From Mobula hypostoma (taxonomy: Eukaryota): DNA of 64,000 bases. Location of the stretch: assembly GCF_963921235.1 (NCBI RefSeq), contig NC_086097.1, positions 94,428,001 to 94,492,000 of the forward strand, written 5' to 3'. Below, piece after piece: positions 29,105 through 31,924 of this stretch. Both the position numbers and the translations under genes were made by a program. Within the stretch, counting starts at the first letter, position 1, and each line of letters begins with the position of its first letter. A model generated the notes under the pieces. That model made no database searches. It worked only from the letters and a program-made list of their open reading frames with translations, and had not been told where the DNA came from.

Positions 29105-30530
29105 CCATCTTTCAAGAGGGTGAAGCCTCAAAAGGCATCATGCCCTGGTATACCTGGTAGGGCACTGAAAACCTGTGCCAACCAGGTGGGAGGAGTGTTC
29201 AAGGACATCTTCAAACTCTCACTACTGCAGTCAGAGGTTTCCACCTGCTTCAAAAGGGCAATAATCATATCAGTGCCCAAGAAGAGCAGAGTGAGCGGCT
29301 TCAATGACTATCACCCAGTTGCACTCACATCACCGTGATGAAGTGCCATGGCCAGAATCAGCTCTTGCCTGAGCAAGGGCCTGGACCCACTTCAATTTGA
29401 CTATCACCATAACGGGTCTATAGGGATGCAATCTCACTAGCTCTCCACTTGGCCTTGGATTACCTGGTCAATAGTAATACCTACATTAGGCTGCTGTTTA
29501 TTGATTACAACTCAGGGATCAACACCATCATACCCTCAGTTCCAATCAACAAGCTTCAGAGGCCTCTGTACCTCCCTCTGAAACTGGATCCTAGACTTCC
29601 TCTTGGGAGTCCACAATCTGTGCGGATCAGAAATAACATTTCATCCTCACTGACAATCAACATTGGTGCACCTCAAGGATGTGTGCTTAGCCCACTGCTC
29701 TACTCTCTCTATACCCACAACTGTGTGGCTAGGCAGAGCTCAAACACCATTCTATAAATTTGCCGATGGTACAACTACTGTTGGCAGAATTTCAGAAGGT
29801 GATGAGAAGGCGTACAAAAGCAAGATAGCTCAGCAGGTTGAGTGGTGTCGCAATTAACAACCTCACACTCAACACCAGTAAGACCAAGGAATTCAAAAAG
29901 GGGAAGTCGACAGAACACATACCTGTCCTCATCGAGGGATCAGAAGTGGAACGGATGAGCAGTTTCAAGTTCCTGGGTGTCAGCATCTCTGAGGATCTAT
30001 CCTGGGCCCGACACGTTGATGCAGCTACGAAGAACTCATGATAGTTGCTATGTTTCTTTTCGGAGTTTGAGGGTACTTGGTATGTCACCAAAGACTCTTA
30101 CAAATTTCTACAGGTATACTGTGGAGAACATTCTAACTGGTTATATCATCGTCTGGCATGGAGGGGCCACTGCACAGGATCGGAAAAAAACTGCAGGAAG
30201 TTGTAAACTCAGCCAGCTCCACAATGGACATTAGCCTCCCTAGCATTGAGAACATCTTCAAAAGGTGACACCTCAAAAAGGCGGCATTAATCACCAAGGA
30301 CTCCCATCTCCCAGGACAAACCCTATTCTCATTGCTGCCATCGAGGTGCAGCCACAGGAGCCTAAAGACACACACTCGTTGTTTCAGGACCAGCTTCTTC
30401 CCCTCCACCATCAGATTTCTGAATGGACAATAAACTCATATACACTACCTCAATATTCCTCCCCCTCTTTTTGCACTACATATTTAAGTTAAATACCTAT
30501 TTCTTATTATAATTTATAGTTTTTTTTATT
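29105..30530 (+). mobile_element. Rex1/Babar-type LINE (RT to 3' UTR)
   Basis: [53 protein letters not shown] and SFKFLGV. Confidence 0.9.
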
Positions 30531-30532
30531 AC

Positions 30533-30840
30533 GTAGGGGATTCGCAGCCCATTCTTTAGCCAGAGCCTTCAGCAATTTGGGCATCGAGGGAGAGAGGAAG
30601 AGGAGAGCCATCCGTAGTACCACCGATGCAGCACAGAGGGCCTCAAGATGGCTGTGGCTCAAAAGAGGGGAGCCATGAAGTCATAAGTAGCTAGCCATCT
30701 GGACACAAGCTGGGGTCTGATCAGCCCCGGCTGGGTCACCTGGAGGAGGTTGTATGATGTTGAAAGACCTGAAACACCCGATGATTCCAGGAACATCACT
30801 GAAGATGTGTCCAGAGGCATCAGTAGAGGTATGTACACAG
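30533..30840 (+). mobile_element. HERO-type (restriction-like endonuclease) non-LTR retrotransposon 3' end
   Basis: Frame from 30535 reads RGFAAHSLARAFSNLGIEGERKRRAIRSTTDAAQRASRWLWLKRGEP*, matching the recalled HERO C-terminus (CRGF...AERASRWLWxKR). It is followed by a structured 3'UTR and interrupts the Rex 3'UTR. Confidence 0.8.
30698..30815 (+). ncRNA. Candidate non-circularly permuted (pseudoknotted) hammerhead ribozyme in the HERO 3'UTR
   Basis: GTA^TGATGTT (30752-30761), GAAA-CACCC (30771-30779) and AACATCA-CTGAAGA (30792-30805), with complementary helices; see findings. Confidence 0.6.
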
Positions 30841-31924
30841 CGTGCATTGCACTTTACTGCTGCTGCAAAACAACAAACTTCACGACATATGCCGGTGATA
30901 TTAAACACATTTCTGAATGACAGCCAGGAGGATACAAGGTAAAGAATTTCTAACGGGAGGTGACCCAGAAATAGCTGCTGCAGTGTTTCATTCTGGGAAA
31001 AATAGAACAAATTGATTCACTTGATACTGAAAAATGAACAGTGTTAGATAATCAACAATTGTTTCAAAGCCTTTAGTATTATTTTAACGCCAAAACCTTC
31101 ACAACTTCAGTCCCTCCTCTCCAAAGCTTCTATAGTCCAACCAACATTTGCATGTCTAGTCTCCCTCCTACTCCTTCTCATCACTCAGCACTGGTGACTG
31201 CGCCTTTTGCTGCCAAGATTCCCTCCCTACACCCCTCTCAGTCTCTCTAACGCACTTGGTCCTTTTAGAAACTCTTGCCACTTGTTGTAAAACTTTGATC
31301 TCAGCCCCGTCTCTCCCATTCTTTTCCTCCAAGTTTCTCCCACTGCTGCCTCCTCATTTCTAAAGCAAGGTAGTCCTTAGAAAGGCCCTTAATGAGCAGC
31401 AACATCTTGCATTGCTGTAACATCTTAGACAAAATTAAATACTCAAGATGCTTCAGCAGATTTTAAACACACAAGGCTGACACCAGGTCCATTAACCTGC
31501 AGATTTCCTCCCACTCCCCAGAGACACAAGGGTTGTTGGGTTAATTGACAGCTGTAATTGTCCATTGTGTGGAGGTGGGAGTGGCTGATAGGCTGTAGGG
31601 ATAGTCAGTGGGAATGGGATCGTTCTGTGAGCTGGCATTTAATAGACTAAATGGTCTCATTCGATGTCTTGGGGAAATCTGGGAAGTGGAACAAAAATCA
31701 AGGTTACAGTTTGTATTAGGTCGACAGTCACGAGAGATGAATTAGGCTCTCTACCTGGGACAGAGCTGAAACAAACTGGAGTTGTAAAACCCCCTGACTG
31801 GCCATCACTAAATCAAATTACTCCATAAAGGAGCCACAGAGACAAGACATTTCTTGTGATACTTCTCAGGAGATCAAATTCCTTTTTAAATCCACCCCCC
31901 TTTCCTCCCTGCAGTTTTGGAACT

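Follow-up and report, generated by a model that had tools for sequence, protein, structure and literature searches.

The 3′ untranslated region (UTR) of a HERO-type retrotransposon copy in the window (the whole 64,000-nucleotide stretch of DNA analyzed) contains, at positions 30698–30815, a domain that is probably a genuine member of the hammerhead class, a standing part of HERO-type 3′ UTRs, and self-cutting in active copies. As the original prediction had stated, the three core strands of the hammerhead follow one another as site-GAAA-CUGANGA and the fold is pseudoknotted; stems I and II cross the nested helices. All of the strings and helices named in that prediction were found exactly at their coordinates in a sequence check, with seven of seven pairs formed in stem I and five of six in stem III of the window copy. 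Resemblance in a single sequence is only suggestive, and the decisive support is comparative. The two comparative tests proposed with the prediction both gave clear answers: the core nucleotides CUGA-GA, GAA, and G-U-H are nearly invariant across 34 sequences, and stems I and III covary strongly, with none of 500 shuffles reaching the observed values. The features of the window copy are collected in Table 1.

Table 1. Features of the window copy, with predicted helices, k-turn, and scissile bond (hammerhead numbering in parentheses)
Feature	Positions	Strand	Remarks
3′ end of the single ORF	30533..30678	+	last ~47 codons, restriction-like endonuclease region
P1, 5′ strand	30698..30707	+	pairs with 30806–30815; closes the entire domain
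Hairpin HP	30708..30732	+	stem 8 bp, loop 9 nt
Stem II, 5′ strand GGGTC (G10.1–C10.5)	30733..30737	+	pairs with 30766–30770
P3, 5′ strand CCTGGA	30739..30744	+	pairs with TCCAGG 30786–30791
K-turn, non-bulged strand GGA (G2n 30746, A1n 30747)	30745..30747	+	
Stem III, 5′ strand GGTTGT (16.6–16.1)	30748..30753	+	pairs with 30774–30779
Predicted scissile bond, A17 (30754)/U1.1 (30755)	30754..30755	+	from hammerhead numbering
Stem I, 3′-product strand TGATGTT (1.1–1.7)	30755..30761	+	pairs with 30792–30798
Linker GAAA	30762..30765	+	joins the distal ends of stems I and II
Stem II, 3′ strand GACCT (11.5–11.1)	30766..30770	+	last T private to the window copy
Core G12 A13 A14 (30771–30773) and stem III, 3′ strand A15.1–C15.6 (30774–30779)	30771..30779	+	
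K-turn, bulged strand: GAU (L1–L3), G1b A2b, U	30780..30785	+	
P3, 3′ strand TCCAGG	30786..30791	+	covariation
Stem I, strand AACATCA (2.7–2.1)	30792..30798	+	
Core CTGAAGA (C3 U4 G5 A6 N7 G8 A9)	30799..30805	+	
P1, 3′ strand	30806..30815	+	directly after A9
3′ tail	30816..30841	+	small hairpin 30818–30829 (weakened in the window copy), conserved TAT, element end ...GTACACAG(C)

Host Element of the Domain

The forward-strand stretch 30533–30841 is a 5′-truncated retrotransposon copy with the hammerhead-like stretch as its 3′ UTR, in agreement with the 3′ UTR placement that had been predicted for an element of HERO type. The ORF of the copy ends with the stop codon TGA at 30676–30678, and a tblastn search with the family ORF matched 30535–30675 at 89%. 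A full-length family member has one ORF of 1166 amino acids with a match to RVT_1 (6e-18) and a sub-threshold one to zf-RVT (6.4e-05), and restriction-like endonuclease motifs were read in the family ORF by eye. The last 400 amino acids of this ORF share 60–66% identity with proteins of Takifugu and Tetraodon, which we take to be HEROFr and HEROTn; these two carry the name HERO in PMC3636483 and PMC7650587. The HERO clade of R2-group non-LTR retrotransposons is marked by one ORF in which RT is followed by a CCHC-type zinc finger and a PD-(D/E)XK restriction-like endonuclease, and by the lack of a fixed target site. Judged by its domains and protein similarity, the element appears to be a single-ORF retrotransposon of the reverse transcriptase (RT)/zinc-finger/restriction-like-endonuclease kind and of HERO type, of which the window copy is a dead, 5′-truncated fossil. 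The flanks of 30 family copies are mutually unrelated and similarity among these copies ceases past CACAG. The tail hairpin followed by G-TAT is repeated in most other lineages, as read by eye.

Recurrence, Core Conservation, and Covariation

The same domain of ~120 nt was found 3′ of the ORF in 23 of the 24 metagenome loci with sequence past the HERO-like C terminus, the HERO-like loci spanning 42–92% amino acid identity. It is absent from the most distant relative, L055 (42% identity), and the motif is thus not universal in the wider group. A covariance model built on the nested helices only, with stems I and II left out, produced 35 matches in 75 sources. Searching the window's own genome with the domain DNA of lineage L044 uncovered a second lineage there with different stems, which scores 102–106 bits with the covariance model; the domain DNA of lineage L038 gave no match in the same genome.

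Among the 34 sequences in which the core was read, U4, G5, A6, A9, A13, A14, and U16.1 are each kept in 34/34, C3, G8, A15.1, C15.2, and G16.2 in 33/34, and G12 in 31/34. N7 is free and takes all four bases, most often U (23, against 7 A, 3 C, and a single G). At position 17, 16 of the 34 sequences carry C, 9 carry U, and 8 carry A, and the lone G belongs to a decayed copy; the triplet of the window copy is GUA. The pair U16.1–A15.1 is formed in 32 of 33 sequences. G10.1 is G in 33/33 and C11.1 is C in 30/34, and the pairs G10.1–C11.1 and C15.2–G16.2 are those that usually close hammerhead stems.

In a plain MAFFT alignment, 88.5% of the cells were paired compared with 63.0% in shuffles, and 33 of the 42 pairs had double changes; 0/500 shuffles reached the observed values, and slid controls gave 36–47%. 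When all six helices were scored in 35 sequences, the paired fraction was 91.3% against 64.0% in shuffles, again with 0/500 reaching the observed value. P1, which is TCTGGACACA/TGTGTCCAGA with 10/10 pairs in the window copy, has 91.8% of its cells paired across the 35 sequences and double-sided changes at all 10 pairs, and hairpin HP has double changes at 8/8 stem pairs. P3 (94.3% of cells paired, double changes at 5/6 pairs), stem I (87.3%, 7/7), and stem III (96.0%, 3/6) behave similarly, and the four core-proximal pairs of stem I have a single unpaired cell in ~130. Stems I and II covary although they are absent from the covariance model.

Topology of the Fold

Two partners had been considered for the GACCT strand in the original prediction. 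The contiguous alternative, in which GTGTC from the strand after CUGAAGA forms stem II, was rejected, with 57.8% of cells paired versus 51.7% in shuffles and no covariation. The pairing GGGTC/GACCT was borne out (96.9% of cells paired, double changes at 4/5 pairs), and it was its description as an extra helix that had to be given up: on this comparative evidence, GGGTC/GACCT is stem II itself. P1 and the hairpin consequently separate the CUGANGA block from the stem II strand that belongs to it, and the predicted fold is that of a type-SGC-like, non-circularly permuted hammerhead. The final position of the 3′ strand of stem II, T in the window copy, is C in 22 of the 29 other family copies.

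From 5′ to 3′, the strands are ordered P1a, hairpin, stem II (10.x), P3a, GGA, and stem III, followed by U-H with the cut site, stem I, a short linker, stem II (11.x), GAAA, and stem III, and finally by the 3-nt bulge, GA, P3b, stem I, CUGANGA, and P1b. The core blocks succeed one another as S (30753–30755), G (30771–30774), and C (30799–30805) and form two pseudoknots. Continuity from A9 to G10.1, a trait of the hammerhead class, is absent, as P1b follows A9 and G10.1 lies 72 nt upstream; an uninterrupted block C, a trait of type SGC, is likewise absent in the HERO domain. At the A9/G10.1 break, P1 and the hairpin would emerge from the core in the manner of a perfect four-way junction, and in the window copy there are no unpaired linker nucleotides at this point. 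The linker between stems I and II is 4 nt long in the window copy and 1–8 nt in other lineages. P3 connects the far ends of the same two stems and would tie them together, with the k-turn folding P3 back onto stem III. The minimum free energy fold of 30690–30825 has −52.9 kcal/mol (z = −2.74).

The k-turn consensus consists of a helix, a 3-nt bulge, tandem G·A/A·G pairs, and a second helix. The internal loop GGA/GAU-GA fits this consensus and is a predicted k-turn: G1b is G in 30/33, A2b is A in 32/33, A1n is A in 33/34, and G2n is G in 27/33 sequences, and the bulge has 3 nt in nearly all rows of the alignment. The loop of hairpin HP holds a 6-nt palindrome, TGATCA at 30718–30723 in the window copy. 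A central 6-nt palindrome (TGATCA, TGGCCA, or TGTACA) was found in 28 of 32 hairpins, against an average of 4.8 and at most 11 in shuffles, which suggests that the loop may serve RNA pairing in trans, or dimerization.

Predicted Cleavage Site and Organization of the Element

From the conserved core and the hammerhead numbering, we infer that self-cleavage of active copies falls between 30754 and 30755. This site is 86–87 nt within the element, and both of its sides are present in genomic copies; the original proposal that the cut processes the 3′ end of the element is not supported. Genomic copies (30 + 20) were read for their organization and for the site. Of the full-length copies, 27/30 have an element 5′ end preceded by a partial 3′-terminal piece with a constant junction; following the 3′ ends instead, 3/30 lead to a 5′ end and 0/30 to a truncated interior. 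In other lineages, 12 of 29 matches are followed by a conserved 5′-UTR-like motif. The upstream pieces measure 35–842 nt (median ~170 nt), which is shorter than free rolling-circle copying suggests; linear templates or template jumps fit equally.

Contigs from four sequencing runs, whose RNA label was guessed, have a 3′-biased depth and loose ends into many flanks and look DNA-like. One of them joins a 3′ end to a 5′ end (4958 to 1332), which shows only a tandem junction in that organism. Terminal direct repeats of the kind that mark a circular assembly were found on none of the metagenome contigs.

What counts against cutting is that 20/20 genomic copies run through the site and 0/20 begin there; among the upstream 3′-end pieces 22/27 run through it and 1/27 begins within 2 nt. 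Fossils of cut templates were looked for among these 20 copies and 27 upstream pieces and were not found. The R2 3′ UTR is a structure that is bound by the R2 reverse transcriptase to start target-primed reverse transcription, and the HERO domain could similarly be a structured 3′ UTR handle for the RT that has the hammerhead fold and does not cut in vivo, with a hammerhead-like core retained for its shape or as a disabled relic. The intact site in the genomic copies and upstream pieces agrees with such a handle, as does the position of the domain, which is that of the protein-binding 3′ UTR in R2-group elements. Moreover, we know of no hammerhead with helices inserted between A9 and G10.1; the insertion is without a proven active precedent, and this counts against activity. 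A scaffold, however, has no need for 13 invariant core nucleotides while all of the helices change sequence, nor for the avoidance of G at position 17 (33/34) or a free N7, and binding and cutting are compatible with each other. We regard a handle that does not cut as unlikely.

A second alternative retains cutting and confines it to the upstream partial copy, where it would give the downstream full unit a defined 5′ end with no circle being formed. A complete domain with an intact CTGAAGA core lies at most 110 nt upstream of 23/30 full-length 5′ ends, and 5′ processing is the task of the R2 ribozyme in the available part of PMC13580325, both of which are in keeping with this arrangement. However, the same ribozyme at the 3′ end of the full unit itself would then cut as well, with loss of the last 86–87 nt, and full-length insertions do not start at the site, the single piece noted above apart (1/27). 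Cutting of this restricted kind appears quite unlikely.

Resemblance to Other RNAs and to Chance

No Rfam family matched the window at gathering scores or a full-length copy at E values up to 1, and around the site only two snoRNA look-alikes appeared, both with E > 6. One of these, SNORD78 (16 bits, E = 6.3, 30750–30806), together with the fit of the GGA/GAU-GA loop to the k-turn consensus, could point to a C/D-box snoRNA-like RNA or a mere k-turn protein site, with UGAUG and CUGA boxes that mimic the hammerhead core. Against this reading, the SNORD78 score falls well short of the gathering score of 38, the D′ box is CUGA in only 7/29 other copies and CCGA in 20/29, the C and D′ boxes are ~8 nt apart, less than a guide requires, and the "C box" forms stem I with the nucleotides that precede the "D box", with Watson–Crick covariation. 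The snoRNA reading is effectively refuted by the score, the missing D′ box, and the covariation of stem I, and is very improbable.

A single-sequence descriptor was run on both strands. It required CTGANGA, UH, and GAAA together with an anchored stem I and a stem III of 5 bp or more each, the latter with one mismatch tolerated, and, upstream, a stem II of 4 bp or more. The descriptor matched the 64-kb window once, at 30799, and 40 dinucleotide shuffles of the window once (three times without the stem II term), corresponding to a chance expectation of ~0.03–0.08 per window. Although this descriptor is only moderately rare, chance resemblance within an ordinary structured UTR has a negligible probability, being refuted by covariation in the MAFFT alignment and the 35-sequence set and by recurrence with compensatory changes in two genomic lineages.

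Proposed Role and Significance

The self-cutting hammerhead remains the preferred reading, and the presence of the conserved domain in the element tail suggests that HERO elements process or circularize their own RNA. The cut may serve to bring transcripts of partial-tandem copies that exceed one unit down to unit length, a role that we consider a serious possibility if somewhat short of an even chance. P1, stem II, stem III, and P3 together provide 27 bp, all of which bridge the two predicted cleavage products. Consequently, the ends would stay together after cutting and could be re-joined into a circle, and a re-joined circle would explain reverse transcripts that run from the 5′ end straight into the 3′ end.

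A more tentative extension, which we think possible and on balance doubtful, is that HERO elements are autonomous "ribozyme LINEs" with a circular-RNA cycle. In such a cycle, the permuted hammerhead would cut longer-than-unit transcripts, and the clamped product ends would be re-ligated by the ribozyme or a host ligase to give a unit-length circular RNA. This circle, possibly as a kissing-loop dimer, would be the template for target-primed reverse transcription, and copying past the junction would generate the partial-tandem genomic copies. If this were true, a retrozyme- or viroid-like RNA cycle would exist within a protein-coding vertebrate retrotransposon, and the domain would be the first hammerhead from nature whose core contains a four-way junction.

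The R2 group now serves genome engineering, and with the HERO domain it would gain a second kind of built-in ribozyme, at the 3′ UTR that the RT must recognize. Taken together with the partial-tandem organization and the palindromic loop, the domain makes the origin of longer-than-unit templates directly testable. In the literature covered, which did not extend to subscription journals, no hammerhead was found in HERO or in any restriction-like-endonuclease LINE, and the permuted strand order is not known to have been reported for animal genomes. So far, all reports of non-circularly permuted ribozymes concern environmental RNA or a small number of bacterial or soil DNA sequences; the HERO domain would place such a permutation in thousands of copies, in a genome of vertebrate size, and in a whole retrotransposon clade, with a natural covariation data set that exceeds the published one. 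Block C is taken as unbreakable in the available part of PMC10085705, and the HERO fold would break this stated rule of an uninterruptible CUGANGA block. An interruptible block would in turn mean a wider hammerhead search space, which is missed by current descriptors and Rfam models.

Comparison with Known Systems

The closest comparison is with the type-SGC (HRIMA-1) non-circularly permuted hammerheads of Eckert, Friedrich, Weinberg, and Weinberg (NAR 2023, PMC10085705), as described in the available part of that paper. The HERO domain shares with them the 5′ to 3′ order of cleavage site, GAAA, and CUGANGA, a link of a few nucleotides between the distal end of stem I and stem II, an extra helix that connects the remaining sides of these two stems and whose far end leads to that of stem III, and a pseudoknotted core that retains all classical core nucleotides. 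It differs in that the stem II strand expected after CUGANGA lies ~70 nt upstream, with P1 and the hairpin between A9 and G10.1, whereas core insertions are at most 1–2 nt in what is available of Perreault 2011 and Eckert 2023 (PMC10085705). In addition, both strands take part in connecting the extra helix to stem III in HERO, which closes this link into the predicted k-turn. The described type-SGC hosts are soil and freshwater metatranscriptome RNAs with hairpin ribozymes, in contrast to the vertebrate-type retrotransposon here, and type-SGC RNAs have been shown to cleave, whereas the HERO domain is known from sequence alone.

Hammerheads of Penelope-like elements (PLEs) and retrozymes (Cervera and de la Peña 2014; Lünse et al. 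2017; PMC7229834; bioRxiv 10.64898/2026.07.22.740005; each as far as available) resemble the HERO arrangement in their terminal location, the partial tandem copies, the ribozyme repeat upstream of a full unit, and the proposed link to unit-length or circular RNA. The minimal PLE hammerheads described there act as dimers, and the palindromic loop suggests pairing in trans for HERO. These ribozymes are of the classical type I with a nested three-way junction, in contrast to the pseudoknotted, permuted form in HERO, and their hosts are GIY-YIG or non-autonomous elements rather than an autonomous restriction-like-endonuclease element of the R2 group.

The 5′ HDV-like ribozyme of R2 is, in the available part of PMC13580325, likewise built into a single-ORF restriction-like-endonuclease element of the R2 group and acts on co-transcripts, as the predicted HERO ribozyme would. 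As described, it belongs to another ribozyme class and sits at the 5′ end, whereas the HERO domain is in the 3′ UTR, and its cut sets the RNA 5′ end that is seen in copies, whereas HERO copies run through the site. Retroviral genomes contain kissing-loop dimerization hairpins with a 6-nt palindrome in the loop. Their hosts are unrelated to HERO elements, for which dimerization is predicted from the loop; the likeness is that the HERO palindrome varies by paired central substitutions and stays self-complementary throughout.

Fold and Conservation of the Domain

Retrotransposons of a clade that occurs as partial tandems carry in their 3′ UTR a conserved RNA whose helices covary and whose complete hammerhead core has a new strand topology. 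In the window, where the RNA forms a domain of ∼120 nt (30698-30815, forward strand), a reading of positions 30400-31100 located every hammerhead string of the original prediction where it had been claimed to lie. The domain has a folding energy of -52.9 kcal/mol and is more stable than its shuffles (z = -2.74), and a descriptor for the hammerhead arrangement matched once in the 64-kb window and once in total over 40 dinucleotide shuffles. Rfam gave no match in the window at gathering scores, the sole match near the site being a 16-bit look-alike of the C/D snoRNA SNORD78. Taken by itself, apart from the comparative data, the window sequence is only suggestive.

Elements of the hammerhead-like domain in the window
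Feature	Positions	Strand	Basis
Cleavage-site strand, GGTTGTA↓TGATGTT	30748-61	+	direct reading
GACCT-GAAA-CACCC strand	30766-79	+	direct reading
AACATCA-CTGAAGA-TGTGTCC strand	30792-812	+	direct reading
P1, 10-bp helix	30698-707 with 30806-815	+	direct reading
Hairpin	30708-32	+	direct reading
P3, CCTGGA/TCCAGG	30739-44 and 30786-91	+	direct reading

Metagenome contigs were scanned with an alignment of 13 HERO-like proteins, yielding 74 loci. The domain is present, in some cases cut by a contig end or decayed, in 23 of the 24 loci that reach the C terminus with sequence behind it. The sole exception, the most distant relative (L055, 42% identity), has no such domain in the 729 nt behind its ORF, and the ribozyme may therefore mark a sub-clade and not all HERO-like elements. 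In a plain MAFFT alignment of 20 domains, fitted to no structure, the invariant columns are every position of CUGANGA except N, the G, A, and A that begin GAAA, the G-U before the site, and C15.2. The six helices are paired in 88.5% of cells in this alignment versus 63.0% in column shuffles, with double-sided changes in 33 of 42 pairs and a covariation score of 0.674 versus 0.201; none of 500 shuffles reached the observed value for any measure, and sliding the partner by 1-3 columns left only 36-47% of cells paired.

A covariance model was built from the four nested helices only, leaving out the pseudoknotted stems I and II, and matched 35 times in 75 sources, including once in the window. In the 35-row alignment of these matches, stem I is 87.3% paired, with double changes in seven of seven pairs, and stem II is 96.9% paired, with double changes in four of five pairs. 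Position H17 is A, C, or U in 33 of 34 sequences, and N7 varies among all four bases. The window's own genome holds a second HERO lineage (L137-L140, ∼1470-1611) with an identical core but a P1 of 13 bp, TGGCCA in the loop, and stems I–III of different sequence.

Stem II and Architecture

Stem II had been left open in the original prediction, either as GTGTC/GACCT or as part of a multi-helix junction. The GACCT strand does form the helix, with GGGTC at 30733-37, immediately 3′ of the hairpin, as its partner; pairing with the strand after CUGANGA was rejected, being found in 57.8% of cases in other lineages versus 51.7% in shuffles. The strand order is thus P1a, hairpin, IIa, P3a, GGA, IIIb-U-H|Ib, linker, IIb-GAAA-IIIa, GAU-GA-U, P3b, Ia-CUGAAGA, P1b. 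The single mismatch of stem III, at position 16.4 (30750), is T in most family copies and G, A, or C in 6 of 29 other copies; in other lineages this pair is usually G-C or G-U.

The window copy has no unpaired bases at A9/P1b, P1a/hairpin, or hairpin/G10.1, and P1, the hairpin, stem II, and the core G·A domain would form a perfect four-way junction, within which the stacking of stem II on the core, common to all hammerheads, could be preserved. The far ends of P3, stem I, and stem II are predicted to meet in a three-way junction, replacing the loop-loop contact of classical hammerheads. The k-turn consensus consists of a 3-nt bulge and tandem G·A pairs, and the internal loop that separates stem III from P3 (GGA at 30745-30747, GAU-GA-U at 30780-30785) conforms to it, with G1b being G in 30/33, A2b A in 32/33, A1n A in 33/34, and G2n G in 27/33 sequences. 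This loop is probably also behind the weak SNORD78 look-alike.

Host Element

The stretch around the domain is the terminal part of a repeat of probable HERO type. A query with 30533-30830 gave 2111 first-look candidates in the 3.5-Gb assembly of the same genome, with all 40 that were scored ∼96% identical, and 14062 candidates came from a query with the final 360 codons of the family ORF. Likeness among 30 copies is lost past ...GTACACAG, which places the element end at window 30840/41. The T at 30770 is a minority state, with C in 22 of 29 other copies; in these, GGGTC/GACCC has five Watson-Crick pairs and a "CUGA" mimic of the snoRNA D′ box is gone. A full-length copy contains a single ORF of 1166 aa, in which RVT_1 is matched at 6e-18 and zf-RVT only below the cut-off. 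Over its last 400 residues, the ORF product shares 85-88% identity with proteins from several teleosts and 60-66% with Tetraodon and Takifugu proteins that are presumably HEROTn and HEROFr. HEROTn and HEROFr are classed in the literature as HERO-clade, non-site-specific elements of the R2 group (PMC7650587, PMC3636483).

The same 400 residues are 82-88% identical to annotated proteins of distantly related teleosts (flatfish, conger, pipefish, herring, hake, and catfish), which is more similarity than a vertically inherited repeat usually shows, and horizontal transfer may be responsible. The window copy starts at ∼30533, within the endonuclease region. An ORF ∼780 nt upstream (29413-29754), whose RVT_1 match of 20.7 bits falls short of the 29.6 cut-off, probably belongs to another retroelement; 29413-30432 and the tail past 30841 (30842-30900) may be parts of a Rex1/CR1-like LINE that the HERO copy interrupts. 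Behind P1 (30816-30841), a small hairpin (CA...TG), a conserved TAT, and ∼8-10 nt to the element end recur, by eye, in most lineages and may constitute a priming module. The 5′ UTR carries a motif conserved at the DNA level and often repeated, CC(A/G)GTGAC...CCAGGAA(A/C)G(A/T)C(T/C)(G/A)G (L031:1340-1420), without an Rfam match, which also lies 3′ of the domain in L036, L043, L044, L046, L048, and L072 and is common to lineages whose proteins are only ∼45-60% identical.

Partial Tandems and Proposed Mechanism

The 3′-terminal part of another unit precedes the element 5′ end in 27 of 30 loci (own genome, L107-L136; L031:1106-1322), with a constant junction of ...CACAG, one C or T, then TTACACC.... 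These upstream pieces are 35-842 nt long, and 23 contain the complete domain, its CTGAAGA core string unbroken, within 110 nt of the 5′ end. Behind 30 randomly retrieved 3′ ends, the 5′ end follows in three and a truncated interior in none. Insertion of new copies beside old ones cannot explain this pattern, because truncated copies outnumber full-length ones by ∼30 to 1 in first-look counts; the tandem junction was already in the template and was copied from it. In other lineages, 12 of 29 matches show the same 3′-UTR-to-5′-UTR succession, and the domain lies upstream of the ORF in L034, L038, L042, and L053. The layout resembles the pseudo-LTRs of Penelope-like elements.

Intact copies are predicted, with good confidence, to self-cleave 3′ of position 17. 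The main rival is a protein handle that has the hammerhead shape and does not cut; the invariant catalytic nucleotides and the avoidance of G17 both argue against this as the sole role. The predicted cut site has left no mark in genomic copies: none of 20 further copies begins there, and only 1 of 27 upstream pieces begins within 2 nt of it.

If self-cleavage does occur, cuts in two consecutive domains of a transcript longer than one unit would free a unit-length RNA. Only stem I lies within a single cleavage product, whereas P1, II, III, and P3 (27 bp) bridge both, so the ends would stay together and could be rejoined. A circular or end-clamped template would then let reverse transcription run from the 5′ end into a 3′ end. 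This sequence of events is tentative and somewhat less probable than not. The short upstream pieces count against a circle and fit linear templates, or end-to-end jumps between two RNAs, equally well. A 6-nt palindrome is present in the hairpin loop (30716-30724) in 28 of 32 cases (shuffles, mean 4.8, maximum 11), and varies through paired central substitutions (TGATCA, TGGCCA, TGTACA) in the window's hairpin and its counterparts in L033-L101, as expected of a kissing-loop dimerization site. The pattern points to RNA-RNA pairing in trans, which could serve template jumps.

Comparison with Permuted Hammerheads

A literature search, with most subscription journals outside its coverage, returned no account of a hammerhead in HERO or any restriction-like-endonuclease LINE. 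Eckert et al. (2023) defined hammerhead blocks S, G, and C, which they assumed to be uninterruptible, and described type-SGC examples from soil, spruce, and freshwater metatranscriptomes and type-CSG and GCS examples from soil DNA (PMC10085705). Type SGC was shown to cleave; it has a linker of ∼3 nt between stems I and II, with a helix connecting their other sides (PMC10085705). [quoted passage not shown] It can be described formally as type SGC circularly permuted, with an opening between A9 and G10.1 and closure at the end where stem III and the joining helix lie. The ribozyme class is already known; the novelty lies in the topology, the integration of a k-turn, and the host element.
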